A stretch of 64,000 nt of DNA from an uncultured Chloroflexia bacterium (lineage in GTDB: Bacteria; Chloroflexota; Anaerolineae; Anaerolineales; Anaerolineaceae). Below the pieces are notes generated by a model, which saw only the letters and a program-made list of their open reading frames with translations, did not search any database and was not told the DNA's origin. Location: NCBI GenBank assembly GCA_963818305.1, contig CAWFRQ010000003.1, positions 162,371-226,370 on the forward strand. The letters run 5' to 3'. Each line of letters starts with the position of its first letter. Position 1 is the stretch's first letter. Positions 1,078-60,369 of the stretch are shown here, one piece after another. The position numbers were made by a program, and so were the translations under genes.

Positions 1078-2649
1078 GTTGAAGGAGTCGTCCATTGAGC
1101 GAATCGACAACGAAACTGGAAACCACGAAAATACTGATCTGCTGCGGCTGGTTGGGATCTGCAAGAGCTTTCCGGGTGTGCGTGCGCTGGATAACGTTCA
1201 CCTGGAAGTCCGGCGGGGTGAAGTGCATGCGCTGCTAGGCGAAAATGGGGCGGGAAAATCCACCTTGATGAAGATCCTGTCAGGGGCGTACGCCAGGGAT
1301 AAAGGCGATATTCTCTGGGAAGGCCAGAAGGTGGAAATTCGCGAGCCAAAAGATGCAGAAAAGCTTGGAATTGGCATCATCTACCAGGAATTCAATCTGG
1401 TGCCGCAGCTTAGCATTGCTGAAAACGTCTGGCTTGGGACGCGAGCATTTCAAGAATAAAGCGCTGCGGTTGATCGACTGGAAAGAGATGTACCGGCGAA
1501 CAAACGAGTTGCTGGAAGAAGTCCATCTCAACCTGGACCCGTCCAGACCTATTCTGGGTTTGGGGATAGCGCACCAGCAGATGGTCGAGATTGCCAAAGC
1601 GTTGTCTTTGAATGCGCAACTCCTCATCATGGATGAACCGACCAGCGCGCTGACCGGAACTGAGATTGACCAACTGTATGCGGTGATCCGCAAGCTGAGA
1701 GATCCAGGGAAATCGGTAATTTTTATCTCACATCATCTGGATGAAGTGTTCGAGATCTGCGATCGTGGAACCGTATTGCGGGATGGGGAATACATCAGCA
1801 CGGTCGATCTGAAAAACACCACCAACGATCAACTGATCAACTTGATGGTTGGGCGGTCTTTAGACCAGCAGTATCCCAAAGTGATTTCCAAACGGGGGAG
1901 AGAAGCGCTGCGGGTTGAAGGAATTTGCCAGGAAGGCGTACTGAAGGATATCAGCTTCAAAGCCTACACCGGAGAAATTCTAGGAATTGCCGGCCTGGTT
2001 GGGGCAGGCAGAACCGAATTGGTGCGCGCAATCTTCGGGGCTGATAAAGTAGATGCCGGGCATGTATTTATCAATGACGTAGAAGTGAAATTAGATTCTC
2101 CTCAATCGACAATCTTTGGCGGGGATGGGATTATTACCCGAAGATCGTAAGTATCAGGGTCTGGTCCTCAAATTATCGGTATTGCACAATATCAGCATGG
2201 CCAGCCTGGATAAGATCAAGAAAAATGGCCTGCTTCGACTGAAGATGGAAAAAATCCGCACCCAAGATTTCATTAACAAACTGCGGATCAGTACACCGTC
2301 CGTAGACCAGGAGGTACAGAACCTGAGCGGCGGCAACCAGCAGAAGGTGGTTTTGGCAAAATGGTTGGCGAGTGAATCGAAGGTATTAATCTTTGATGAA
2401 CCGACCCGGGGAATCGATGTAGGCGCCAAAGTGGAAGTATATAACCTGATGAACACCCTGGTTGAAAATGGAGCCGCAGTCATCATGGTCTCATCGGAGA
2501 TGCCCGAATTATTGGGCATGAGCGATCGGATTATGGTGATTTATAAAGGTACGGTAGCGGGTGAGTTTGCCCGGGATGAAGCCACGCAAGAAAAAATTCT
2601 GGCAGCCATGATGGGAGTGGAAAGCTATGGCACAAATGACAATGAATGA
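1078..2649 (+). CDS. Sugar ABC transporter ATP-binding protein with two NBDs (RbsA/MglA-like, CUT2); frameshifted as assembled
   Basis: Walker [10 protein letters not shown] and [10 protein letters not shown] (first NBD), second Walker [10 protein letters not shown], signature LSGGNQQK and [13 protein letters not shown]. The gene is spread over ORFs 902..1459, 1353..2150 and 2116..2649, with shifts near ~1440 and ~2130 and possibly ~1130. AAGGAG at ~1082 suggests a start at about 1078-1097. Confidence 0.9.
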
Positions 2650-3679
2650 CGCTGCGAAAGCACCTAAGAAAATCTTTGGCATGACCTTGGGAAGCTTTCT
2701 GGGCCGGTTTGGTGCGCTCTTTGGACTGATCCTTTTAACCATTTTCCTATCGGTCACATCGGATGTCTTCATGACTGGTTCGAACCTGACAAACATCGCC
2801 CGGCAGGCGACCGTGAACGCTTTCCTGGCGATCGGATTACTGGTGGCGATTATCACAGGTGGGATCGATCTATCAGTAGGTTCCATTCTGGCGGTTGCCA
2901 TGTGCTCGATGGCGATTTTAGCTGTCAAGATGGGCGTCAATCCATACCTTTCCATGCTCGTCTGCCTGGGGGTAGGTGTATTTATCGGTTGGATCAACGG
3001 GATATTATTGACCAAGCTACATTTGCCACATCCGTTTATCGCTACGCTGGGTACGATGAATATTGCGCGTGGTCTGGCATTGATCATGACCGGCGCGTCA
3101 CCGATTTCAGGCTTTGACCGGGCTGGTGCACCGCAAATCCTCTACTTGGGAGCCGGATCAGTCGGACCGATTCCGGTGGCATTGGTCGCAGTGGTTGTGG
3201 TTTACATCATCTTCCACATCATACTTACCGAACACATCGCTGGGACGCCATATCTACGCAGTGGGTGGGAATACCGCGGCAGCCAGGTTATCAGGGATCA
3301 ATGTGGATAAAACCCTGGTGATTGTGTATAGCCTGAGTGGACTTATGGCTGGTTTGGCGGCGTTGATGCTCGCCGGGCGTACCAATTCTGGCTTCCCCAA
3401 TGCTGGTGCCGGCTATGAACTGGACGCGATCGCGGCGGTCATCATCGGGGGGCAAGCTTTTCGGGTGGTTCGGGTACAATTGGCGGCACGGCAATCGGAG
3501 TATTGCTGATTGCTGTCTTGCGCAACGGTCTGGTATTACTGAACGTACCGACCGAATGGCAGACGGTTGCGATCGGGCTAGTCATTATCGGAGCAGTAAC
3601 GGTTGATGTTTTTCGACAGCGGGCTGCACCGGTAAGGTATCGGGTACAATCAAACAGGAGGTGTAAAGACAACAAGTGA
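2627..3679 (+). CDS. Sugar ABC transporter permease (RbsC/AraH-like); frameshifted as assembled
   Basis: Polytopic hydrophobic sequence with [32 protein letters not shown] and [14 protein letters not shown]. The pieces lie in ORF 2627..3310, ORF 3114..3509 and an unlisted frame ending at the TGA at 3677-3679. Confidence 0.85.
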
Positions 3680-7913: not shown

Positions 7914-8945
7914 ATGGAGAATAAACCAACAGATCAACCAGTGAGAGTAGGTGTCGTAGGGACCGGTGGCATGGGAACTCGTCACGCGGTTAATTTGCAT
8001 CGTTATGTAGGCGGCGCCAAGGTGAGTGGTGTTTATGATTTGGACTCGGATCGGGCGCAGCAAGCTGCGGAACAGAGCGGACATCCGCGTGTATTCACCG
8101 ATCCGATCCAACTGATTGAAGATCCACAAATTGATGCTGTTCTGATCGCTTCACCGGATGATACCCATGCCCGCTTTACACTGGCATGTCTTAAGGCAGG
8201 TAAACCTGTCCTCTGTGAAAAACCGCTGGCTACCAGCGTCGAAGATGCCATCAAAGTATTGGATGCTGAAGTGTCCATCGGGAAGAAACTAATCTCGGTT
8301 GGGTTCATGCGACGCTTTGACCCGCAACATGCTGCCGTTAAAGCCGCCGCAGTTTCTGGTGATCTGGGCAAGCCATTGCTTTGGAAAGGCGTCCACCGCA
8401 ATGCTTCAGTTGCGTTTGGCATTACAGGCGCAACCATCCTCACCAATTCGGCGGGACACGATTATGATTCAGCCAGATTCCTTCTGGGTGAAGAAGTGGA
8501 AGATGTGTACGTACGTGGATTGAAGTCTCGCCCCGAGCTGCACCCGGATACCAAGGATATGCTCTTAATTGAGCTATTTATGAGCAACAATACGATGGGA
8601 ACGGCCGAAGTGTATGTGAATGATGACTACGGCTACGAAGTTTCCGCCGAGTTGGTCTGCCAAAAAGGGACTGCGGTAACTCAGCAGCCCGATAAAGCGA
8701 TGCTGCGGGCAAAATCACACCGTGGATTCTATGTATCGGCTGATTGGTTGTCCCCATTCCAGGATGCCTATGTGGCTGAAGCAATTGATTGGATCGAATC
8801 ACTCCAAACTGGCAAGCCGTTCAGCGGCGCTTGTGCCTGGGATGGTTACGTGACCATGATGGTAACCGCAGCCTGCATCCAAAGCCTGCAAAACGTTGCA
8901 GTGACGCCTGTTCGTTTACTTGAGAAACCTGCTCTCTATCGCTAA
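7914..8945 (+). CDS. iolG: Gfo/Idh/MocA-family NAD(P)-dependent oxidoreductase, likely inositol 2-dehydrogenase
   Basis: Rossmann N-terminus VGVVGTGGMGTRHA and the family motif CEKPLA...GFMRRFDP. It sits between iolE and TIM-barrel genes in an iol cluster. The family call is firm; the substrate is inferred from context. Confidence 0.75.
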   Translation: MENKPTDQPVRVGVVGTGGMGTRHAVNLHRYVGGAKVSGVYDLDSDRAQQAAEQSGHPRVFTDPIQLIEDPQIDAVLIASPDDTHARFTLACLKAGKPVLCEKPLATSVEDAIKVLDAEVSIGKKLISVGFMRRFDPQHAAVKAAAVSGDLGKPLLWKGVHRNASVAFGITGATILTNSAGHDYDSARFLLGEEVEDVYVRGLKSRPELHPDTKDMLLIELFMSNNTMGTAEVYVNDDYGYEVSAELVCQKGTAVTQQPDKAMLRAKSHRGFYVSADWLSPFQDAYVAEAIDWIESLQTGKPFSGACAWDGYVTMMVTAACIQSLQNVAVTPVRLLEKPALYR

Positions 8946-8947
8946 CA

Positions 8948-9950
8948 ATGGAGACGCATCCGATTACGCTCTTCAGCGGTCAATGGGCCGATCTACCTTT
9001 TTTGACCCTAGCAGATAGGGTCAAGTCATGGGGATACGATGGGTTGGAATTAGCCTGCGATGGTGATCACTTTAATGTGGAACAGGCATTAACCAAGTCA
9101 GAATACCTCCAGAATAAACGCGCCGAATTGGAGAAACGCGGTTTACAGTGCTTTGCTATTAATGTGTCGCTGGTGGGGCAGTGCGTGGCTGATAAGTATA
9201 TTGATGAACGCCACCAACGGGTGATCCCGGCCAAAATATGGGGGGATGGGAAACCGGAAGGGGTCCGCACCCGGGCAGCCGAATTTGTGAAAGACGCCGC
9301 TCGGGCAGCTGCCGCATTTGGTATCCAGAAAGTGATCGGTTTTACCGGCTCGCCCATCTGGCACCTGTTGTATTCGTTCCCACCGAATGACTGGAATGTG
9401 ATTGAAGCCGGGTATCAAGAAGTGGTAGACCGCTGGAATCCAATTCTGGATGTGTTTGATGAAGTGGGGGTGAAATTCTGCCTGGAAGTACACCCCACTG
9501 AGATCGCGTATGATATCGTGACCACCCAAAAAATCATGGAGGGTTTCAAGCATCGACCAGCGTTCGGGATCAATTTTGATCCCAGCCACCTCCATCATCA
9601 ATTTGTCGATCCAGTCATGTTCCTGGAAACCTTTGCCGACCGAATTTATCACGTCCACGTCAAGGAGAGTATCAGGCATCTCGATGGTCGCACCAGTATA
9701 TTGGGTTCGCATCTTAATTTTGGTGATCCGCGCCGTGGTTGGGATTTTGTATCTGCCGGACATGGTGGATTGAACTGGGATGAAATTTTCCGCACCTTGA
9801 ATCGGATCGGATATGATGGCCCGCTCTCAGTGGAATGGGAAGATAACGGGATGGAACGGGAATATGGCGCCAGAGGAGGCCCTGGCGTTGGTCAAACGCT
9901 ATAATTTCCCAAGCAGTAACCGGGCGTTTGATTCGGCATTTTCGAAGTGA
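8948..9950 (+). CDS. Sugar phosphate isomerase/epimerase (xylose isomerase-like TIM barrel); C-terminal frameshift near ~9870
   Basis: FCLEVHPTEIAYD, INFDPSHL and VHVKE are metal-ligand style motifs of the AP-endonuclease-2/xylose-isomerase fold. After EWEDNGMEREYGA the homologous tail (..EALALVKRYNFPSSNRAFDSAFSK) is in another frame, ending at the TGA at 9948-9950. Confidence 0.75.
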
Positions 9951-9969
9951 GTCCGGGAGCGGAATAGAT

Positions 9970-10797
9970 TTGAATTTTGCTGTCTGTCTGGATCCGCTTT
10001 TTCCTGACCTTCCGCACGATGAGAAGGTGGGTTTGGTTGCACAGGCTGGTTTCCACTCTATCGATTTCTGGGGTTGGAGAGATAAAGACATCCCGGCATT
10101 GGCAGCAGCCTGCCACATTAACCAGGTGAAGATAGTGAACTTCAACGGTCACCGCCAGGGTAGTATGGTCGCCAGTCAAACGCACCCATTGTTGATTCGG
10201 GATCTAGTGGATACAGTTCCAATTGCCAGACAGTTGGAATGTCCCAACCTGATGGTGATCACCAATCAACTTAATCCGGATGACTCAGCCCAGCCTTACC
10301 TGGAGATTCCAGATCATCAGAAGCGGGAGAACGTTATCAGCGCGCTGCGGCAGATGCTGACGGTGACTCCATTGGATATGACTTTGATGTTGGAACCGCT
10401 CAATACCCGTAAAGATCACCCTGGCTACTGGCTGACTGATTTTGGTACTGCGCTGGAGATTCTACGGGAAATCAACGACCCGAGATTGCGGTTACTATGC
10501 GACCTGTATCACATGGGGATGATGGGCAATGATCTGTTTCAATTGATAGACACATATCTGCCATACGTCGGTTACTTCCATGCTGCCGATTTTCCCGGAA
10601 GGCATGAACCCGGTACCGGGTCCGCGGATTGGCTAGGCTTGTTGCGCCGTTTAAACGCGGCGGGGTATCAAGGAACCCTGAGTTTTGAGTTCTACCCGCA
10701 AGGAGATACGCTGAGTGCATTAGAATCGGATTACAGATCTGATTGCGAGAATTTGATGGTAGGGGCGGGTTTCAAACCCGCGCATACGCCAAAATAG
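9970..10797 (+). CDS. Hydroxypyruvate-isomerase-like TIM-barrel protein
   Basis: NFAVCLDPLF..., GFHSIDFW, LMLEPLN, DLYHM and FHAADFPGRHEPGTG match the Hyi/AP-endo-2 fold pattern. The start is placed at the in-frame TTG at 9970. The last ~14 codons read into a GC hairpin (10765-10781), so the true stop may be ~10756 in another frame. Confidence 0.6.
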   Translation: MNFAVCLDPLFPDLPHDEKVGLVAQAGFHSIDFWGWRDKDIPALAAACHINQVKIVNFNGHRQGSMVASQTHPLLIRDLVDTVPIARQLECPNLMVITNQLNPDDSAQPYLEIPDHQKRENVISALRQMLTVTPLDMTLMLEPLNTRKDHPGYWLTDFGTALEILREINDPRLRLLCDLYHMGMMGNDLFQLIDTYLPYVGYFHAADFPGRHEPGTGSADWLGLLRRLNAAGYQGTLSFEFYPQGDTLSALESDYRSDCENLMVGAGFKPAHTPK

Positions 10798-10838
10798 ATA
10801 ACAACTGGCACATTGTCCCAAATAGTCAAACACACCGC

Positions 10839-10866
10839 TTGACACATTCTTTTTTCAATGTAAAAT
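10839..10866 (+). promoter_or_regulatory. Sigma-70-type promoter for the aromatic amino-acid operon
   Basis: TTGACA (10839-10844), a 16-nt spacer, then TAAAAT (10861-10866). It lies ~25 nt upstream of the leader ORF. Confidence 0.5.
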
Positions 10867-10890
10867 CATTTGAACTGGATCTAATAACCA

Positions 10891-10962
10891 ATGAAAAACA
10901 CTTTCCGCTTTTCCTTTTATTTTTATTATTACGGAGCCAAATCCCCGGCTGCCGGCCTTTAG
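10891..10962 (+). CDS. Candidate leader peptide MKNTFRFSFYFYYYGAKSPAAGL (23 aa) of the shikimate operon
   Basis: ATG at 10891 and TAG at 10960-10962. Eight of the ten codons 5-14 are Phe or Tyr. The ORF sits between the promoter and a terminator hairpin, directly upstream of aroH. It is too short for the ORF track. No clear Shine-Dalgarno is seen. Confidence 0.55.
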   Translation: MKNTFRFSFYFYYYGAKSPAAGL

Positions 10963-10993
10963 GTTTAAGCGAAAGAAGTATCTAAGCTCACAA

Positions 10994-11019
10994 CCCGATG
11001 CCCGCAGCATCGGGTTTTT
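10994..11019 (+). terminator. Intrinsic terminator (attenuator) between the leader ORF and aroH
   Basis: CCCGATGC-ccgca-GCATCGGG followed by TTTTT, 19 nt before the aroH start at 11038. Confidence 0.65.
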
Positions 11020-11037
11020 ATTTTACCCGGAGGAAGT

Positions 11038-11433
11038 ATGTCTGTTCGTGGAATTAGAGGTGCAATCACAGTAGAGCAAGATCAGCCGGAGCTGATTCTG
11101 TCTGCCGTGACTGAGTTATTGACGGAAATCTGCAAAAAGAATCCGAGCCTGTTGCCGGTTGACATTGCCAGTGTGATCTTCACCAGTACATCTGATCTGG
11201 TATCCGTCTACCCGGCGGTGGCAGCCCGAGATTTGGGCTGGACCAAGGTGCCATTGATGTGCCTGCCAGAGCTGCCAGTGAACGGCTCTTTGCCTCGATG
11301 CATCCGGGTGTTGATTCACTGGAATACCAACCTAACCCAGAGCGAAATTAACCATTGTTATCTGCGGGATGCGGTCCGGCTTAGACCTGACCTGATGAAA
11401 GTAACAACCAACCGCTTGATTCTTACAGTTTGA
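11038..11433 (+). CDS. aroH: Chorismate mutase, AroH class
   Basis: MSVRGIRGAITVE...CIRVLIHW...LRPDL follows the monofunctional AroH-type (B. subtilis-like) chorismate mutase pattern. GGAGGA Shine-Dalgarno upstream. Confidence 0.9.
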   Translation: MSVRGIRGAITVEQDQPELILSAVTELLTEICKKNPSLLPVDIASVIFTSTSDLVSVYPAVAARDLGWTKVPLMCLPELPVNGSLPRCIRVLIHWNTNLTQSEINHCYLRDAVRLRPDLMKVTTNRLILTV

Positions 11434-11456
11434 AAATCTTACCAGGAGCGTGAATT

Positions 11457-12467
11457 ATGATGATCATTATGAACATGGAAGCCACCGATAGCCAGGTGAA
11501 AGCAGTGATGGCGCGGATAGAAGCCAACGGATTTAAAATTCACTACTCCAAAGGGGATGAACGGGTCGTGTTGGGTGTGTTAGGGAATAATCCGGGGCAG
11601 ATCAAAGAGCAACTGACTTACCTGCCAGGTATTGACCGGATATTGCCGATCTCGCGACCCTACAAGATAGCCTCGCGCGAACTAGTGAATGCGAATACGA
11701 TCTTCCCGCTGGATGGCATCGAGGTGGGTGGTGATGAAGTGATCATCATGGCCGGTCCGTGCGCAGTGGAAAACCGAACCCAGCTTTTAGAAACAGCTCA
11801 CGCTGTCAAAGAGGCTGGTGCGCAGGTATTACGCGGCGGAGCTTTCAAACCGCGTACATCCCCTTACGCTTTCCAGGGATTGGGTGAAGAGGGTTTAGAG
11901 ATTCTGGCTGAAGCACGTGAACAGACAGGCTTACCGATTGTGACCGAAGTGATGGCGCCCGAGATGGTTGATCTGGTTGCTCGCTATTCAGATGTTCTGC
12001 AGATCGGCGCACGTAATATGCAGAATTTTGCCCTGTTACATGCCGCAGGTGAGAGCCAGAAACCAGTGTTATTAAAGCGTGGTAATTCAGCAACGATCGA
12101 AGAACTGCTTATGGCAGCTGAATACATCTTATCGCACGGCAATAACCGCGTCATGCTTTGTGAGCGTGGAATCCGTACCTTCGAAACCAGCACCCGCAAT
12201 ACCACTGATATCAATGCCATTCCCGTGTTGAAATCACTCACCCACCTGCCTGTGATCCTGGATCCAAGCCACAGCACCGGAAATTGGGAATATGTAGCAC
12301 CTATCGCCCGGGCGGGGATCGCTGCCGGAGCGGATGGCTTGATTGTTGAAGTCCATACCCATCCCGAAGCAGCCATGTCAGATGGCGGGCAATCCCTCAA
12401 ACCCGAGCGATTTGCACAATTGGTCAGACAGGTACGTGAGATTGCCCGCGCTGTCGACCGTAGCTAA
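11457..12467 (+). CDS. aroF: 3-deoxy-7-phosphoheptulonate (DAHP) synthase, type I-beta, with N-terminal ferredoxin-like regulatory domain
   Basis: The N-terminal ~70 aa ([35 protein letters not shown]) resemble the Thermotoga-type regulatory domain. The catalytic core has [33 protein letters not shown] and DPSH. Confidence 0.9.
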
Positions 12468-12490
12468 GGATTTCCAGGAGGAGAGCATTG

Positions 12491-13379
12491 ATGGTTCAGA
12501 ATGAGATGCCAGCGATAAGAGAGAATACATACCTGATTTCTGATCAGGTGGTAGCCATCTTGGGAATGGGGCTGATGGGCAGCTCGTTGGCGTTGGCAAT
12601 GAAAGGTCACTGTAAAAAGGTGATTGGAATTGATCCTGATCCGATGGTGGTTGAATATGTTTTGCAGCATGAAATGGTCTCGGAAGCATGGTCTGAACCA
12701 GCCGGGAAAATCAATGATGCGAGGTCTGGTTATCCTTGCTGCACCGGTTGGGAAGATCTTGGATTTGGTGAAACGTTTACCGGTACTTCATACCGGTCAG
12801 CCGGTTGTATTGGATCTGGGGTCCAGTAAGCACGAAATTTTGAAGGCGTTTGCGCAACTTCCCTCCCGCTTTGATTCAATAGGCGGACATCCGATGTGCG
12901 GAAAAGAACTGCTCGGACCCAGTCAGGCAGATGCAGCCATGTTCCAGGGAGCACCTTTCGTCCTGTGCCCATTAGATTCGACCAGCGAAACGGCTCGTCA
13001 ATTAGTGCTTGATCTCATCGCGTTGATCGGAGCGCGACCGGTGATCCTCGACCCGGAAACGCATGACCGTTGGGTTGCCGGTACCAGCCATGTGCCATTC
13101 CTGCTGGCGAATGCCCTGGCGACGGTTACTCCGATGGAATCTAGTCCGCTGGCAAGAACCGGCTGGCAAAGCACCACCCGGCTGGCGCACACTCCTACCA
13201 GCATGATGATGGATGTGTTACGCACCAACCGGGCAAACATCCTTGTTTCACTCCACGCAGTTCAAGTTCAACTGAAACAGATAGAGGATTTGCTGAGCAC
13301 GGAAGAATACCAATCCCTCGAAGAAACATTGAATCAGGGAACAAAGCAGTACATTGAAATTTTATCCCGAGGCAAATAG
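12491..13379 (+). CDS. tyrA: Prephenate dehydrogenase; one frameshift near ~12700
   Basis: Rossmann VAILGMGLMGSSLALAMKG (ORF 12488..12829), then LVILAAPV...GGHPMCGKE...GTSHVPF (ORF 12624..13379). Confidence 0.85.
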
Positions 13380-13380
13380 C

Positions 13381-14733
13381 ATGAATCTGAAAATCTCCCC
13401 CACCACGAAGTTGTCTGGCAGCGTCCAATTACCGGGCGACAAATCCATCTCTCACCGTTCGGCGATTTTTGCAGCTTTAGCTGAAGGTGACAGCCGGATT
13501 GAGAACTTTTTGGTGGGTGGGGTAACCCAGGTAATGTTGGATGCTCTGGAACAGCTTGGAGTATCCTGGGAGCTGCAGGGAACCATGTTGAGCGTACATA
13601 GCCGCGGGATGTACGGGTTCAAAAGTCCCGAAAAACCGATCTATTGCGGTAATTCTGCCACTACCATGCGACTACTGGCTGGTTTGCTGGCTGCTGTTGG
13701 CGTGGATGCCACCCTGGATGGATCGGAGGGTTTGCGCCGACGCCCTATGGGCAGAATCATGGATCCGTTGTTGGAGATGGGAGTACCGGTAGAGGGACAG
13801 AATGGTTGCGCGCCCATTACGATCCACCGGCCGCATTATCCTCTCAAAGCGATTCATACCCAATTGCCAGTCGCCAGCGCACAGGTGAAAAGTTGCCTTT
13901 TGTTGTCAGCCCTCGCAGCCAATGGACCAACTTCCATTGTAGAACCTGGTTTATCCCGGGATCATACCGAACGGATGCTGCGTGGACATGGGATTGAAGT
14001 TCGCAGCGAAAAGATGGGCAGTAATGGGGATACATGTTATTCCACTACCCTCGTTCCGCCACGGAACATCAGCTTCAAACCTCTACAATTATGTCTCCCC
14101 GGCGATTTTTCATCTGCAGCATTCTTGATCGTGGCGACACTCATCACCCCCAACAGTCTGATTTGTATTCACGATGTGGGATTGAATCCAACCCGTACCG
14201 GTTTGCTGGATGCACTTTTAGAGATGGGGGCAGATATTCACATCCAGAACCAGCGCAACTCGTATGGCGAGCCGATCGGCGACCTGTGCGTAAAGTCGAG
14301 TGAGCTGCATGGATGTACGATACACGGCGAGCAAGTGGTACGAATGATCGATGAGTTCCCCATTTTCAGCGTGGCAGCTGCATACGCAAAAGGTACTACC
14401 CTGGTTAAAGATGCAGCAGAATTGAGATTGAAAGAATCTGACCGGATCGCATCCATCTGTAACGAACTAACCAAGTTGGGGGTGGGAATTGTTGAAACGA
14501 CAGACGGATATTGCATTCACGGTGGTACCGGTCTGGTTGGTACAGAGGTCGATTCGCATGGAGATCACAGGCTGGCGATGTCACTTGCGGTAGCTGGGCT
14601 GGGTGCTCAATCTCCGCTGGTTGTGAAAAATGCAGAGATGATTGATGAGTCATACCCGCAATTTATCTCAACGCTCGCCAGGCTGGGGGCAGAGTATGCA
14701 TTTGAGCAAAAGGAAGAACGACTAACTGTTTAA
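13381..14733 (+). CDS. aroA: 3-phosphoshikimate 1-carboxyvinyltransferase (EPSP synthase)
   Basis: LPGDKSISHR, GNSATTMRLL, RRRPMGR, LKESDR and DHRLAMS motifs. ATG at 13381, immediately after the tyrA stop. Confidence 0.95.
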   Translation: MNLKISPTTKLSGSVQLPGDKSISHRSAIFAALAEGDSRIENFLVGGVTQVMLDALEQLGVSWELQGTMLSVHSRGMYGFKSPEKPIYCGNSATTMRLLAGLLAAVGVDATLDGSEGLRRRPMGRIMDPLLEMGVPVEGQNGCAPITIHRPHYPLKAIHTQLPVASAQVKSCLLLSALAANGPTSIVEPGLSRDHTERMLRGHGIEVRSEKMGSNGDTCYSTTLVPPRNISFKPLQLCLPGDFSSAAFLIVATLITPNSLICIHDVGLNPTRTGLLDALLEMGADIHIQNQRNSYGEPIGDLCVKSSELHGCTIHGEQVVRMIDEFPIFSVAAAYAKGTTLVKDAAELRLKESDRIASICNELTKLGVGIVETTDGYCIHGGTGLVGTEVDSHGDHRLAMSLAVAGLGAQSPLVVKNAEMIDESYPQFISTLARLGAEYAFEQKEERLTV

Positions 14734-14750
14734 GTGGGCGGAGCTACGGG

Positions 14751-15611
14751 ATGCATCAACTTTCAAATCCAACTTATTACTACCATTTAGGGTTGCTCGG
14801 TTGGCCGGTGGAACATAGTCTCTCTCCCCGACTTCACCGGGCTGCATTGACTGCTGCTCATCTAGCGGGTGAGTATTGTCTGATCCCGGTTGAAAACAAT
14901 GACCGTAGGGATCAACAACTATCCGGTTGGATCGAAGAACTTAAGCAAGGCGAACTCGACGGTTTGAATGTCACCATCCCACATAAACAACACATCTTGC
15001 CATTCGTAGATGATTTGACCGGCTCGGCAAAGAAGATTGGGGCGGTCAACACCCTCTACTATAAAGATGGACGGGTTGTGGGTGAAAACACCGATGCGCG
15101 TGGATTTATAAGCGATCTAACCCTCCAGTTTTCCCACCTGCAGAAATCTGCGAAGAAGGCTTTTATTTTCGGTGCGGGTGGGTCCGCACGGGCAGTGGTC
15201 TATGCATTATCGAATGATAATTGGCAAGTGACAATATCCTCAAGGCGGGTCGAGCAAGCCAATGAGCTATCCGCCAGTTTTGATGGAAATTGCAGGGTGG
15301 TACGAGCGGATAAATCTCACGAGGAACTGGAACGAGGCGGATATGACCTGGTCGTGAACTGTACTCCCATTGGGATGAATCCTTACCCGGAACAGAGCCC
15401 ATGGCCGGAAGATCTGGATTTTCCCAAGGGAATCTGCATCTATGATCTGGTGTATGCCCCAAGGGAAACCCGGCTGATCTGGCAGGCAAAGGCATCGAAT
15501 ATCCGCGCCTGTAACGGCCTGGGGATGCTGGTCGAGCAAGCTGCGCTGGCGTTTGAAATCTGGACAGGGATGAAAGCAGATCGGGCTGCGATGAAAGCTG
15601 CTGTAGAATGA
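14751..15611 (+). CDS. aroE: Shikimate dehydrogenase
   Basis: GWPVEHSLSP, NVTIPHK, GAVNT, NTD and GAGGSARAV motifs in the AroE order. Confidence 0.9.
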   Translation: MHQLSNPTYYYHLGLLGWPVEHSLSPRLHRAALTAAHLAGEYCLIPVENNDRRDQQLSGWIEELKQGELDGLNVTIPHKQHILPFVDDLTGSAKKIGAVNTLYYKDGRVVGENTDARGFISDLTLQFSHLQKSAKKAFIFGAGGSARAVVYALSNDNWQVTISSRRVEQANELSASFDGNCRVVRADKSHEELERGGYDLVVNCTPIGMNPYPEQSPWPEDLDFPKGICIYDLVYAPRETRLIWQAKASNIRACNGLGMLVEQAALAFEIWTGMKADRAAMKAAVE

Positions 15612-15669
15612 AACAAGGACTTACAAAAACTCTGATAGATCAAGGTTTACGCAATGAAGAGGTGGTAAA

Positions 15670-16842
15670 GTGACGCTTCGATTTCTAACTGCGGGAGAAT
15701 CGCATGGCCCGGTTCTGACAGTAATCTTGGATGGGATTCCGGCTGGTCTTAAATTAACGTCCGCTGATTTTGCGGACGATATGCAGCGCCGCCAAACCGG
15801 TTATGGCGCAGGTCCGCGTATGAAAATGGAACAAGACCTGGTCGAAATCACAGCCGGTGTCATGGCGGGCCAGACCACCGGAGCGCCGATCGCATTAACC
15901 ATCCAAAACCAGGATCATAAAAAATGGAAAGGGACAACCATCGAGGCGATGACCGCTCCCAGACCAGGGCACGCGGATTTAGGCGGGGTGGTCAAATATG
16001 GGTATAACGACCTACGCCCAGCTCTTGAGCGTGCTTCTGCCCGTGAGACCGCCGCCCGGGTGGCGATGGGAAGTGTTTGTAGAAAATTATTGCTTGAGTT
16101 TGGAATTCGAGTGGGAGGATACGTAATTTCAATCGGAGAGATACCTTCCGATTTAAGCGCACTACCGGTGGAAGAACGTATTGAAAAGGCACGCATTTCA
16201 AAGGTGAATTGCCCTGATCCGGCAGCATCCGCCAGGATGGTCGAGCGAATCCGTAAAGTGATGGACGAAAAAGATACCCTGGGGGGAGTCATTGAAGTAG
16301 CTGGGTTGGGTGTTCCGCCCGGGTTGGGGTCTTTTACCCAGTGGGATAGCCGTTTGGAAAGTAGATTGGGTGCAGCCATCCTGAGTGTTCAGGCGGTCAA
16401 AGGAGTGGAGATCGGTCCTGCTTTTGAGAATACTTTGTCCCCCGGAACGCAGGTGCACGACCCAATATTATTGGAAGGGGCGGAGTTAGTACGTTCCAGC
16501 AACCGGGCTGGAGGAATAGAGGGGGGGATCTCTACCGGTGAGCTGATCCTGATTCGAGCAGCCATGAAACCGATCGCATCCACCCTCACGCCACAGACCA
16601 CGGTGGATCTCAAAACCGGTCAACCAGCTGTTACCCGCTATGAGCGTTCTGATTTTTGCCCGGTTCCACGGGCAGTTGTCGTGCTGGAAGCTATGACAGC
16701 ATTCGTCCTGGCAGATGCACTCCTCGCCAAGCTAGGCGGTGATTCGCTGGCTGAAATGAGAGCCCGATATGAATCACTATCCAGAAATCGGTTGTCTGAT
16801 ATTCATTTGAATGGGCAAGCACAGACCTGGTGGCCGGCATGA
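15670..16842 (+). CDS. aroC: Chorismate synthase
   Basis: LRFLTAGESHGP, RPGHADL, SARETAARVA and GGISTGE. GTG start. Confidence 0.95.
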   Translation: MTLRFLTAGESHGPVLTVILDGIPAGLKLTSADFADDMQRRQTGYGAGPRMKMEQDLVEITAGVMAGQTTGAPIALTIQNQDHKKWKGTTIEAMTAPRPGHADLGGVVKYGYNDLRPALERASARETAARVAMGSVCRKLLLEFGIRVGGYVISIGEIPSDLSALPVEERIEKARISKVNCPDPAASARMVERIRKVMDEKDTLGGVIEVAGLGVPPGLGSFTQWDSRLESRLGAAILSVQAVKGVEIGPAFENTLSPGTQVHDPILLEGAELVRSSNRAGGIEGGISTGELILIRAAMKPIASTLTPQTTVDLKTGQPAVTRYERSDFCPVPRAVVVLEAMTAFVLADALLAKLGGDSLAEMRARYESLSRNRLSDIHLNGQAQTWWPA

Positions 16843-18431
16843 AATCCAATTCAATTTTTTTGTACGGTCCATCCGGCGCGGGAAAAACTACTATCGGTAG
16901 AATTCTATCAGATCAGTTAGGGCTGCCGTTTCATGACCTGGATCAGGAGATCGAAGTTCGTCTGAACCGTACCATCCCTGAGATTTTCCGTGACATGGGT
17001 GAAGACGGATTCCGAATACATGAACAACTCCAATTACAGTTGTTATTGCAATCAAAGGTAAAAAGTATCGTCTCTTTGGGGGGCGGTACCTTGTTGGATC
17101 CGGAAAATCGTCACATGGTTGAAGAACAAGGAAGCGTGATCGTTCTGCATTCCTCAATTGAGCACCTCTCACGCCGTTTGCGGAACGATCCTCATGCCAG
17201 ACCGTTATTGGCTGAAAACCTGGAAGAGAAACTATCCCAATTGCTACAGAGCAGAGAAGGCCATTACACCTCATTTGCATCGCAGTTGAATACCAGCGAC
17301 CTGTCTCCAGAGCAGGCAGTCCGATGGATCCAAACGCGGATCGGACATTATCACCTCAAGAGTATGGGTGAGTATGATGTACTCGTCACTTCTGACAGTC
17401 TAGATCTGATTGGCGAGGAATTAAAAGCACGCAAATTAGCAGGACCTATTGCTCTGGTCTGCGATGAAAACATAGCCGGTTTGTACGCTGGGCGGGTTCG
17501 CGATTCGCTAGTTCAACAAGATCTCGAAGTTGCGAGTATCGTTCTCCCAGCCGGTGAGCAGCATAAGAACATTCAGACCATCTCTCGCCTGTGGTCTGAT
17601 TTCCTTGGCGCAGGTTTGGAACGAACCAGCACGGTGGTTGCGTTAGGCGGTGGAGTGATCTCTGATATGGCGGGATTTGCCGCGTCCACTTATCTACGGG
17701 GAATCCGCTGGGTAGCGGTGCCAACCACGCTACTTGCGATGGCGGATGCCAGTATGGGCGGGAAGACAGGGATTGACCTGCCCGAGGGGAAAAATTTAGC
17801 TGGTTCTTTCCATCCACCTAGCCTGGTGTTGCAAGATCCAGAAGTGCTTCGCACTCTGTCGATCGAGGAACTTCGGAGCGGTTTGGGAGAGGTGATGAAG
17901 CATGGGATCATCTCTGATCCCCCATTATGGGAGACTTGTATCAGGCTGGGTGATCCTGCCGGATGGGGAGAACAATGGAATGAAATTGGCAATGTGGTCC
18001 GGCGCGCGGTCGCAGTTAAAGTGGATGTGATTGAATCAGACCCGTATGAAAAAGGTAGGCGGGCAGTATTGAATTATGGGCATACCGTTGGTCATGCAAT
18101 TGAAGTGTTATCTAATTTCAGTATTCGGCATGGTGATTGTGTGGCCACTGGAATGGTGGTGGAAGCCCAAATGAGTGAACTTTTAGGTCTGGCGCAGTCT
18201 GGTTTGACCGAAGAGATCGTAGGTGGACTGCAAAGAGTGGGTTTGCCCACGGCAGTACCAGGCTCGCAGTCTGTCCAGAAGATCATGCGAGTGATGCAGT
18301 ATGACAAAAAGAAATCAGGCGGCAAGGTCAAATTCGCTTTGCCGGTTCAACCGGGAGAAGTCAGAGAAGGGATGGAAGTGGATGACCGAACAATCGAAAC
18401 AGCGATCTTATCTCATCTTGCACGGGCCTAA
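16839..18431 (+). CDS. aroKB: Bifunctional shikimate kinase / 3-dehydroquinate synthase (AroK-AroB fusion)
   Basis: N-terminal P-loop kinase ([19 protein letters not shown]), followed from ~aa 175 by DHQ synthase motifs ([43 protein letters not shown]). The ATG overlaps the aroC stop (ATGA). Confidence 0.9.
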
Positions 18432-18849
18432 TTTAAATTTGCTTGGCACGCGCGAGCCTGGGGTTTATGGAAGCGCGACTTTGGAGCAGATCAATGCCGG
18501 TCTGGAGCATGTCGTAATGCAGATGGGGGTGGACCTGAAGTTCCGTCAATCGAATATCGAAGGAGAGCTGGTGGATGCGATTCAAGATGCACGCCAGTGG
18601 GCAGATGGGATTGTTTTGAACGCAGGTGGCTACACCCACACCTCGGTCGCTATTCGAGATGCAATTGCAGCAATCGGAATCCCAGTGGTGGAAGTGCATC
18701 TATCGAATGTATTTGCGCGCGAAGAGTTCAGGCATATCTCGTTGATTGCGCCGGTTTGCGCCGGCTCGATCAGCGGCTTTGGTGCATTTTCGTATGAATT
18801 GGGATTGCTGGCTATTGATCACATGGTATCGAAAAAGCAAAGAATGTAG
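18382..18849 (+). CDS. aroQ: Type II 3-dehydroquinate dehydratase
   Basis: [34 protein letters not shown] and VEVHLSNV. The only plausible start (ATG 18382) overlaps the aroKB 3' end by 50 nt in another frame. Confidence 0.9.
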
Positions 18850-45353: not shown

Positions 45354-45910
45354 TTATACCTCCATGATTTCTTTTTCTTTTTTTACGCCAACAGCTTCAA
45401 TTTGAACAATAAATTTATCGGTTAGTTTCTGCAATTCTTCTTCTGCGTATTTCAGATCATCTTCTGAAATCATTTTTTCTTTTTCAAATTCACGCAGGTC
45501 CTTGATTAAGTCGCGCCGTACGTTGCGAACTGCCACCCGACTTTCTTCCAGGTGAGTGTGAACCACTTTAACCAGATCACGGCGGCGTTCTTCTGTGAGG
45601 ACAGGTAGATTCAGGCGGATTACTTTGCCATCATTGTTGGGGGTCAGGCCCAATTCAGACTGCATGATCGCGCGTTCGATGTTCTTGATGGTCGAAGCAT
45701 CGAAAGGTTTGATCATCAATTGTCTGGGTTCAGGCACACTAATGCTGGCTAATTGCATCAATGGGGTTGGAGCTCCGTAGTATTCGACAGGAAGACGTTC
45801 TACCAGAGCTGGTGAAGCCCGTCCGGTACGAATTCCGGACAAGGTTTCGCTTAGGAATCGATTGCCCCTTTCATACGTCCTTCTGCTTCGTGGATAGTCT
45901 CTTTAACCAT
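45354..45910 (-). CDS. frr: Ribosome recycling factor; one frameshift near ~45852
   Basis: MVKETIHEAEGRMKGAIDS (from the ATG at 45910) stops at a TAA. Restoring one T gives ..LSETLSGIRTGRASPALVERL, continuing into ORF 45354..45842. Confidence 0.95.
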
Positions 45911-58582: not shown

Positions 58583-60369
58583 TTATTGAGCTGTAATTAA
58601 GCGCACAGCGTCTTTAATCCAGCCGGATATTACCATGCGTGCTGCACCGAGAACGTTGATTTTGAGACCTTTCATAGGGGTCTCCAACTCGCGTTTATCG
58701 CAGATGGTGGACTCGTTCGAATCAGTCACGCGATGCTTCAAATCCGCAACTAGTTGTTTCCGTACTGTATCATCTTCGATTTTCATCAGCTGATCGATCT
58801 CCCCCATCAACTGAACCGCTTGATCAATCCGTTTCGCCGTGGCATTCGCTTTTTCTTGCGTAATGACTCCGAACTCCGCCTTGATCAGGTTGAGTTGTCT
58901 ACCAGCTTCATAACTGGCGGCTGCAATCTCGTGCCGGGTCATCCAATCTGTCTCGTAGTTGAGCACATATTTCCAACTCGGTTGCAACAAGAGCTGACGG
59001 TGTTCTTCCAGCGTCCGGGCAAACATTCGATAGCCATGTTTTTCTGGTTCTTCAAAAGCGCGGCTGCCGGGATCAAGGAATGGGGCCATGGGTGAGATGA
59101 ATGGCACTACGTGATGAATTCCATTTTTCGAGTAACGTTCCAGGATACTTCGGCAGTACCCGACGGTATCCATCACACTCTGGTAGGTCTGCTCTTTGAT
59201 CCCGATCATGAAGAACAAATCCAGTCGTTGACATCCGAATTCCAGGGCGTCATCAATGGTGGCTTCAATTTCCGCCGTTGTGTATGGACGACCAAAAGCT
59301 TTTCGAACATGGTCATCGTGTGATTCCATGGAAATTTCAATGACAAAATTCGGCACAGCCTCCGCCAAACGGCGGGTGAATTCACGCGGCCAGGCATTGA
59401 ATAATTCAAAATAGAGTGGCTTCTTGTATCCATGGATGGCTTCCAGGAATCGGTCAGCATATTCAGGACCAGCGTGGCGAATATCTCCCAGTACCATCAC
59501 CGGACCTTTACTGAAAGCACCGATCCGGCGGATATCATTGGCCAGATCGACAGGATTTCGGAACGCCGGAGCAGTTCGATTGTGGAATTTGCGGAACATG
59601 CCGCATCCGCCTCCGCAGGTTGTGCAATTGTAAGAACAGCCCCGCACCGTGAGAGCAGCAGTAATCGGATAGCGCAGCCAGGCGCGAAATGGAATGTAAC
59701 TGGCCAGATCACGGTCGCGAACCACCGATTTAACGACATGCGAATAATCTAGTAATACATCATCCAGGGTGTACGGGCTGTAGGTAATGGGGTTTACGTG
59801 AGGAGTTGTGTTCACTGTCTTTCCAAACCAGGTTGGGGATCTGTTCGAGTTTTGCAGCATCGGCAGAATAGGGTTCGGGTGCGATCTTTCCGCCCGATCG
59901 AATGTATTGCACCAGACTGTAACAGGGGTTTTTCGGTTGAATCTCCACGCAGTATGAAATCAACATCCGGGTATTGAATGAGTTCTTCATGGAAATAGGT
60001 GGCTGAAAGTCCGCCAAATAGAACAGGACGGTCAGGGTGATAGCGTTTAACGATCTTTGCCACTTCAATGGAACCGTGGGCGTGAGGCAGCCAGTGTAGA
60101 TCAATACCGAAGATAGCAGACTTCATTTTCTGGATCGTTTTTTCAACATCGAATAACGTGTCTTCCAGCATTCTTACAGCCAGGTTTACGATCCGGGTCT
60201 GAAAGCCATACCGTTCCAAGTATTCTGCCATCGTTGTAAATCCGATGGGATACATTTCGAAAACCGGGGTGGACGGTACCATATCGGATACCGGACCATA
60301 CAGGATAGATTTACGCCTGAAGTCATAGACGGATGGTGCGTGGAGAAGGGTCAGATCAATTGAGCTCAT
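58583..60369 (-). CDS. B12-binding-domain radical SAM protein; about two frameshifts (~59800-59900) as assembled
   Basis: N-terminal cobalamin-binding-like domain (IFGIDLHWLPHAHG, VLFGGLSATY, DFILRGD). Radical SAM cluster motif CSYNCTTC (CxxxCxxC) in ORF 58583..59860, with the linking piece in ORF 59760..60104. Confidence 0.8.

Follow-up and report, generated by a model that had tools for sequence, protein, structure and literature searches.

A candidate phenylalanine/tyrosine leader-peptide attenuator at the head of a complete shikimate operon in Anaerolineae

The 64-kb stretch of DNA analysed here, hereafter the window (64,000 nucleotides of contig CAWFRQ010000003.1, from an uncultured member of the Anaerolineaceae, Chloroflexota), carries directly upstream of an operon for aromatic biosynthesis (aro) a short open reading frame (ORF) rich in phenylalanine (Phe) and tyrosine (Tyr) codons, followed by an intrinsic terminator. 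Attenuation of the trpL/pheL type is an established mechanism, and we consider, at a probability of roughly 85%, that this element is a ribosome-mediated transcription attenuator of that type, which would couple the whole aro operon to charged tRNA-Phe and tRNA-Tyr. A first-pass annotation, made from the letters of the window alone, had proposed the same logic, and conservation, folding energies and the positions of the parts now support it computationally. The comparative sequence data likewise support the view that the window holds one copy of a known mechanism in a large uncurated family of Anaerolineae aromatic leader-peptide attenuators. The window combines clustered cognate codons, a terminator without an intervening promoter, an antiterminator strand at the stop codon and a competing hairpin 1:2, laid out as follows (MFE, minimum free energy structure):

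10891–10962, + strand: leader ORF of 23 codons, MKNTFRFSFYFYYYGAKSPAAGL, with stop TAG at 10960–10962 (sequence reading and translation)
10903–10932, + strand: regulatory codon run, codons 5–14, with 4 Phe and 4 Tyr
10932–10938 with 10947–10954, + strand: hairpin 1:2, CGGAGCC with GGCU.CCG (MFE and centroid folds)
10944–10965, + strand: region 2, the putative antiterminator 5′ strand, which pairs with 10992–11014 and overlaps both the 3′ strand of hairpin 1:2 and the stop codon
10966–10968, + strand: in-frame TAA at the family-conserved stop position (alignments A2 and A3)
10992–11001 with 11007–11016, + strand: intrinsic terminator of 10 bp with loop CCGCA and a U-rich tail to 11024

The leader ORF is without parallel in the window. 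Its codons 5–14 read F R F S F Y F Y Y Y, eight of ten being Phe or Tyr just as the first-pass annotation had read them, and in all six frames of the 64 kb this is the single place where ten codons include eight or more for Phe or Tyr; the aromatic share of the operon's own proteins is only 5%. Homologous ORFs occur in at least 157 distinct leaders, where they span 20–31 codons and contain 6–11 aromatic codons each. Counted together, 157 distinct leaders hold 539 Phe, 565 Tyr and 92 tryptophan (Trp) codons, with a Trp codon in 90 leaders, and synonymous codons are used side by side (TTT 400 and TTC 139; TAC 294 and TAT 271). The ATG, the reading frame and an in-frame stop are retained in about 170 leaders. 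A chance ORF is ruled out by this uniqueness within 64 kb together with the recurrence of the whole arrangement in relatives. Elsewhere in the window, a second leader candidate (59036–59095, F/W-rich, MFFWFFKSAAAGIKEWGHG) was rejected as a chance match, as it lies inside a 425-aa minus-strand ORF (58583–59860) and has no terminator context, and an FFFFF stretch near 45354 falls within long ORFs called on the opposite strand.

The two ends of the leader ORF are conserved in different ways. The leader peptide consensus is M..S.R(W/F)F.FYFYYG(F/L)R...AVGGA-stop, its N-terminal two thirds (M..S.RW/FFaFYFYYG) being well conserved among relatives, and within it the aromatic run varies as codons do, because F, Y and W interchange and both synonymous codons occur. 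The last third of the ORF is conserved at the nucleotide level as the near-invariant GCCGUUGGYGGCGCUUAAG, whose reading frame gives ...AVGGA-stop in most leaders, while in others a different frame gives ...RLPLAALK-stop, ending a few bases further on; because the same nucleotides are read in two frames, this part of the ORF is constrained as RNA and not as protein. The stop codon always falls inside this conserved segment, that is, in region 2. In the window the TAG comes two codons ahead of the family TAA, at a place where the closest relative (L081) has AAG and its ORF runs on to the TAA, and the window's stop is thus displaced 6 nt upstream, yet still within region 2.

The arrangement recurs throughout the relatives. 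A search for AroH homologues, followed by a scan of one genome per species, gave 80 aro loci, the homologues coming overwhelmingly from Chloroflexota metagenome-assembled genomes labelled Anaerolineae or Anaerolineales. An ORF scan found an aromatic-rich short ORF 70–150 nt 5′ of aroH in 69 of these 80 genome loci, and the leader is found in about 72 once the cases recovered by a covariance model (R1, built from the leaders of 59 relatives with the window excluded) are added, these being leaders displaced by an intron or a gene swap and so missed by the ORF scan. Among the 80 loci every genome labelled Chloroflexota or Anaerolineae that has enough upstream sequence carries the leader; the loci without a match comprise five labelled Planctomycetota, two of uncertain label and one incomplete contig. 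In nearly all loci a terminator of canonical type lies 17–33 nt past the leader stop. Run against the 64-kb window, R1 returned a single match (10903–11023, 64.7 bits, E 8.6e-12), directly 5′ of the aro operon; the L081 leader scores 64.2 bits. A metagenome search with a nucleotide pattern from the conserved 3′ leader segment matched at least 120 contigs. Among the matches listed, 112 have enough downstream sequence, which begins with aroH in 110 and with the gene for 3-deoxy-D-arabino-heptulosonate 7-phosphate (DAHP) synthase in one (L082), the last being a contig of unclear context; an aromatic-rich ORF of 20–31 codons plus a terminator stands at the operon 5′ end in 110 of the 112. Apart from one contig of unclear context, no leader was found before unrelated genes among the loci and metagenome matches listed. 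The first-pass annotation had held that a lack of the F/Y-rich ORF in relatives would refute it, and these counts show the opposite. As the leader stands 5′ of varying first genes (aroH or DAHP synthase), the element tracks the 5′ end of the aro operon. Finally, L081, whose AroH is 83% identical to that of the window, shares 92% of the leader as against 75% of aroH DNA (55% at third codon positions) and 82% of DAHP synthase DNA, and the excess of leader over aroH identity argues for purifying selection on the leader.

Several relatives show rearrangements around the leader. In L026 and L078 (about 1800–3354) the order is leader, DAHP synthase, aroH, the leader still being at the operon 5′ end. 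L082 carries on its reverse strand two leader–terminator copies (~1765–1893 and ~3107–3231), one before the DAHP synthase gene and the other right after it at the contig end, and from their sequences the pair appear to be tandem attenuators within one aro cluster. L021, which has two DAHP synthase copies 3′ of aroH and a leader at 2231–2357 (114 bits), contains a group II intron between the attenuator terminator and aroH (region 2231–3001, with Rfam matches to D1–D4 and domain V at 2439–2981), and a group II intron fragment lies just 5′ of aroH in L048 (52–171). The intron looks like an insertion just past the terminator; with an intron between terminator and aroH, control of the operon would depend on splicing.

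Comparative evidence is strongest for the terminator and hairpin 1:2. The terminator, which the first-pass annotation had placed just before aroH together with its U-run, is there: its letters are AACCCGATGC / CCGCA / GCATCGGGTT, then TTTATTTT (10992–11016 plus the U-run), and the 10-bp hairpin, also written AACCCGAUGC-CCGCA-GCAUCGGGUU, folds on its own at −15.9 kcal/mol and ends about 20 nt 5′ of the aroH ATG. On its 5′ side hairpin 1:2 starts within the last Tyr codon and runs on into the conserved Gly codon; this helix would act as a protector and possibly also as a pause hairpin. On alignment A2 (60 sequences), where covariation was compared with 500 shuffles and with registers slid by 1–3 columns, hairpin 1:2 and the terminator together have 89.7% of cells paired (33–52% in the slid registers) and 131 double-change cells against 41 in shuffles, a value that none of the 500 shuffles reaches. 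Changes on both sides of a pair were seen for seven of the nine pairs of hairpin 1:2 and for nine of the 13 of the terminator, the terminator helix by itself having 93% of cells paired. RNAalifold independently predicts the terminator and the outer helix of hairpin 1:2. A further hairpin, in the spacer between stop and terminator, is stabler than shuffles family-wide (mean z = −2.0, n = 159) and weak in the window.

The switch between these structures was examined by masking the bases that a ribosome would cover, up to 10942 with the A site on Tyr14 and up to 10972 with the ribosome at the stop codon. The footprint used extends some 12 nt in the 3′ direction from the first base of the codon in the A site, as in bacterial toeprints. 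For the window's leader, late stalling (A site on Tyr14) makes a long antiterminator the MFE structure (−27.2 kcal/mol), composed in the masked fold of these helices:

10944–10947 with 11011–11014, + strand: antiterminator helix, CCCG with CGGG
10948–10952 with 11004–11008, + strand: antiterminator helix, GCUGC with GCAGC
10954–10956 with 11000–11002, + strand: antiterminator helix, GGC with GCC
10959–10960 with 10997–10998, + strand: antiterminator helix, UU with GA
10962–10965 with 10992–10995, + strand: antiterminator helix, GGUU with AACC

A ribosome whose A site is on Phe9 allows hairpin 1:2 to form, and the MFE structure is then the terminator; a ribosome at the stop leaves the terminator alone able to form (−16.5 kcal/mol); and with no ribosome the terminator forms. 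The comparison of folds thus comes out in the window as the first-pass annotation had supposed, late stalling favouring the antiterminator and a ribosome at the stop favouring the terminator. The modelled folds suggest that effective sensing falls to the final four or five codons of the aromatic run, which in the window are mostly Tyr.

Across the family the same contact is seen in energies and positions. In 120 of 163 distinct leaders the 14-nt segment that pairs best with the terminator 5′ arm plus loop is no more than 10 nt away from the conserved stop, and in a scan from the ATG to the arm the mean duplex energy of the partner at the stop is −11.9 kcal/mol, as against −2 to −9 kcal/mol elsewhere. 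Sequestration of the arm amounts to −5.8 kcal/mol in the family under a late stall, compared with −2.0 with the ribosome at the stop and −4.4 for shuffles. In an alignment-free swap test the native pairing of region 2 with region 3 was matched by 3 of 5000 permutations, and a fixed-column version of the antiterminator (A2 columns 88–97 with 140–149) is 80% paired, against 35–58% when slid. The pairing register differs among subfamilies, and the part that the family shares is the pairing of the stop-codon segment with the 5′ arm and loop of the terminator. The specific contact first proposed, of 10943–10952 with GCAGCATCGGG (11004–11014), is accordingly a mixed case: it is present in the late-stall MFE structure of the window, where it makes up the first two of the helices listed, and its pairing with the 3′ arm is not shared by the family. 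A GUUGG:CCAAC pairing with the terminator loop was rejected as a general feature, the commonest loop being ACA(C). A second segment able to pair with the terminator 5′ arm lies about 50 nt 5′ of the conserved stop, over codons R-W-F (CGCUGGUUUGCG); it is the best partner of the arm in 29 of the 163 leaders (mean duplex energy −8.8 kcal/mol), and a translating ribosome would cover it.

A near-consensus promoter occupies 10839–10866 on the + strand (TTGACA at 10839–10844, a 16-nt spacer and TAAAAT at 10861–10866, 11 of 12 consensus matches), where the first-pass annotation had located it, and the transcription start is predicted near 10873, about 7 nt past TAAAAT. L081 keeps this promoter, and a promoter-like site stands immediately 5′ of the leader in 159 of 167 related leaders. 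Over the 45 nt 5′ of the leader ATG the relatives (L001–L201) share a strikingly uniform promoter, cTTGACnca-N-cATAGAAT-AGCGCCCAAY-ATG, with a GC-rich discriminator, and the combination is perhaps a sign of stringent-type promoter control. Downstream, no promoter was found in the gap of about 20 nt between terminator and aroH, and no terminator-like site on the + strand within the operon (11038–18849). The Shine-Dalgarno sequence of aroH (GGAGG) lies at 11029–11033 on the + strand, ahead of the ATG at 11038, and 75 nt separate the leader stop from this ATG. The operon, on the + strand throughout, comprises by NCBIfam assignment:

11038–11433, + strand: aroH, AroH-type chorismate mutase
11457–12467, + strand: DAHP synthase
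12488–13379, + strand: prephenate dehydrogenase (tyrA)
13354–14733, + strand: aroA
14751–15611, + strand: aroE
15670–16842, + strand: aroC
16830–18431, + strand: aroK–aroB fusion
ending at 18849, + strand: aroQ

These NCBIfam gene assignments bear out the earlier description of the operon as a complete shikimate pathway of seven steps together with chorismate mutase and prephenate dehydrogenase, and gene order in L081 is identical. The tyrA gene carries a frameshift near 12722–12726, residues 16–77 of the L081 orthologue matching in one frame and 79–295 in another, which is either an assembly error or a pseudogene; the aroA and aroC gene calls of L081 are themselves split, so that assembly indels are suspected. 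On the other side of the leader, three genes at 7914–10797 encode proteins of sugar-phosphate isomerase/epimerase-like (AP_endonuc_2/TIM-barrel) and oxidoreductase types; they also neighbour the leader in L081 and are unrelated to the aro operon, with the promoter in between.

Put together, these parts suggest the following course of events. RNA polymerase would start about 7 nt past TAAAAT, with translation of the 23-codon leader following as the RNA emerges. When Phe and Tyr are plentiful the ribosome would reach the stop (10960) and cover region 2 (10944–10965), whereupon the terminator (10992–11016 and the U-run) could form and transcription would end before aroH. When charged Phe-tRNA or Tyr-tRNA is scarce, the ribosome would stall on roughly codons 11–14 and melt hairpin 1:2 (10932–10938 with 10947–10954), leaving region 2 free to pair with the emerging 5′ arm, loop and part of the 3′ arm of the terminator; this antiterminator would allow RNA polymerase to read aroH through aroQ. 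After an early stall, or with no ribosome, hairpin 1:2 would stay intact and the terminator would form. In this scheme we infer that the leader ORF is translated, that the ribosome has the footprints assumed, that the switch has suitable kinetics and that it responds to Phe and Tyr.

Two sets of observations weigh against a switch of this kind, and they concern the antiterminator and the start of translation. The antiterminator is the least secure part of the model, its support coming from energy and position. On A2 its pairs covary no better than shuffles (389/500), a suspected Y90–R147 pair is mismatched in 32 of 60 leaders, and RNAalifold finds no structure in the segment from region 2 to the loop; of the covarying stems that the first-pass annotation had anticipated, the terminator and hairpin 1:2 covary and the antiterminator does not. 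Hairpin 1:2, which in the window overlaps region 2 extensively, overlaps the family-conserved region 2 by only 2–3 nt in most relatives. Moreover, the terminator is the full-length MFE structure in every ribosome state in 96% of 169 leaders, the window being an exception; we therefore rejected equilibrium folding as evidence for a switch in the relatives, where it would have to be kinetic. As for translation, the window's leader ATG lacks a Shine-Dalgarno sequence, and an SD-like (Shine-Dalgarno-like) tetramer is found at only 3 of 167 leader ORFs as against 59 of 60 related aroH starts. Of the 159 relatives in which a promoter could be recognised, 107 have a −10 hexamer, usually TAGAAT, that ends exactly 10 nt 5′ of the leader ATG. 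With a start about 7–8 nt past the hexamer, the 5′ untranslated region (UTR) would therefore be some 2–4 nt in most relatives, effectively leaderless, and judging from these sequences leader translation in most of them is probably near-leaderless. The window and L081 depart from this pattern, with a gap of 24 nt from the −10 hexamer to the ATG and a predicted AU-rich 5′ UTR of about 17 nt that likewise has no Shine-Dalgarno sequence.

A lack of Shine-Dalgarno sequences would also fit an untranslated structured RNA, in which a protein or ligand binding to the U-rich tract and hairpins (in a riboswitch-, TRAP- or PyrR-like manner) would govern the terminator and the ORF would be incidental. Consistent with this, the 3′ third of the ORF is kept as nucleotides rather than as peptide, and its GCCGUUGGYGGCGCUUAAG segment is unusually invariant. 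We nevertheless think such an RNA unlikely, given that ATG, frame and in-frame stop are kept in about 170 leaders, that the aromatic run changes by F/Y/W interchange and synonymous codons with no fixed RNA sequence, that no Rfam family matches (T-box included), and that the stop always lies in region 2, a position relevant only if a ribosome arrives. The good conservation of the N-terminal two thirds of the peptide could instead point to a functional small aromatic-rich peptide with its own terminator, the aro operon being served by unregulated read-through or by another promoter. That is very unlikely: the terminator–aroH gap offers no recognisable promoter in its 20 nt or so, the C-terminus changes frame between relatives, and the element keeps its place at the head of the aro operon despite reordering (L026, L078, L082), is duplicated before two aro genes in L082, and is not found before unrelated genes, the one contig of unclear context aside.

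It is equally improbable that the leader acts on translation, whether by boosting aroH through re-initiation or coupling or by masking the ribosome-binding site of aroH. Leader ORFs near structural genes have been proposed to raise translation by re-initiation (PMC4833913), but here the 75 nt between leader stop and aroH ATG contain a strong terminator and U-run, and the aroH Shine-Dalgarno sequence lies outside all conserved helices. Chance adjacency of an ORF and a hairpin in an AT-rich intergenic region can scarcely be credited. The 165-nt leader as a whole does fold little better than shuffles (z = −1.2), yet the comparative data (more than 150 distinct conserved sequences, covariation and an independent covariance model match at E 8.6e-12) refute it.

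If the element is a ribosome-mediated attenuator, its family has several features worth setting out. We incline, with some caution, to the view that this is the first leader-peptide attenuator family to be described in Chloroflexota; that it is present in essentially all Anaerolineae-type aro operons sampled; that it is mostly leaderless or nearly so, without Shine-Dalgarno sequences; that it reads Phe, Tyr and often Trp codons jointly for the entire common aromatic pathway; and that GCCGUUGGYGGCGCUUAAG may have an extra role, such as a transcriptional pause or a factor binding site. The Anaerolineae, abundant and for the most part uncultured, live in sediments, soils and wastewater sludge; next to nothing is known of how they regulate their genes, and the model offers a concrete and testable form of regulation for their aromatic amino-acid biosynthesis. 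It would extend classical attenuation to Chloroflexota, and a natural set of attenuators that probably start without a Shine-Dalgarno sequence would be useful for studying transcription–translation coupling on leaderless messages. With 157 distinct leaders and a working covariance model the element is a candidate for RNA family curation, and for annotation it is a case of a small ORF and terminator overlooked by gene callers.

Known RNA families do not capture the element. The Rfam leader-peptide families (Phe_, Trp_, His_, Thr_ and Leu_leader among others) and the T-box model gave no match in 10500–11400 at E up to 10, no leader-peptide or T-box family matched the whole window at gathering score or eight relatives at E up to 0.1, and the best sub-threshold match (anti-hemB) covers the terminator only and was rejected. 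We found no description of leader-peptide attenuation in Chloroflexota in the literature; a broad attenuator survey may mention it. The first-pass annotation knew of no such arrangement before an operon of this kind; that holds for Chloroflexota as far as we found, but a Phe/Tyr leader before a DAHP synthase operon is known as aroR of Corynebacterium glutamicum.

In its proposed architecture the element shares the four-segment logic of the Escherichia coli pheL–pheA and trpL–trpEDCBA attenuators, in which regulatory codons are followed by a 1:2 hairpin, a 2:3 antiterminator with its 5′ strand placed at the stop of the leader ORF, and a 3:4 intrinsic terminator. A summary of the E. coli systems is given in PMC11802643. 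The E. coli leaders each read one amino acid for a terminal branch, whereas the Chloroflexota leaders are mixed Phe/Tyr, often with Trp, and stand before the common pathway; unlike pheL and trpL their ORFs have no Shine-Dalgarno sequence, and there is no sequence or covariance-model match to Rfam Phe_leader or Trp_leader. As to that missing sequence, leaderless polycysteine short ORFs in mycobacteria act as cysteine-responsive attenuators without a Shine-Dalgarno sequence (bioRxiv 10.1101/834739). They resemble the Chloroflexota leaders, in most relatives as predicted from promoter position, in placing a regulatory ORF at the extreme 5′ end of the mRNA; they differ in sensing cysteine and in belonging to another phylum, and the window's own copy has a 5′ UTR of about 17 nt. 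In the Bacillota, T-box and TRAP systems make a terminator/antiterminator choice 5′ of aro and trp genes that reports aromatic amino-acid supply, the T-box sensing uncharged tRNA directly and the TRAP path sensing Trp through a protein. The regulatory goal is thus the same, and those systems work without a leader peptide. The closest functional precedent is aroR–aroF of C. glutamicum, in which a short leader peptide with the codons Phe-Tyr-Phe lies 5′ of the aroF (DAHP synthase) operon (Neshat et al. 2014, as described in PMC11802643 and PMC7356990) and stalling at these codons raises operon transcription under Phe limitation (PMC11802643). On that account, attenuation logic is not unprecedented for the common aromatic pathway. 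C. glutamicum is an actinomycetote whose leader is described as F-Y-F only, whereas the Chloroflexota leaders contain 6–11 aromatic codons; and, compared by description, aroR controls aroF and its neighbours, whereas the leader in the window would govern all seven shikimate steps together with chorismate mutase and tyrA.

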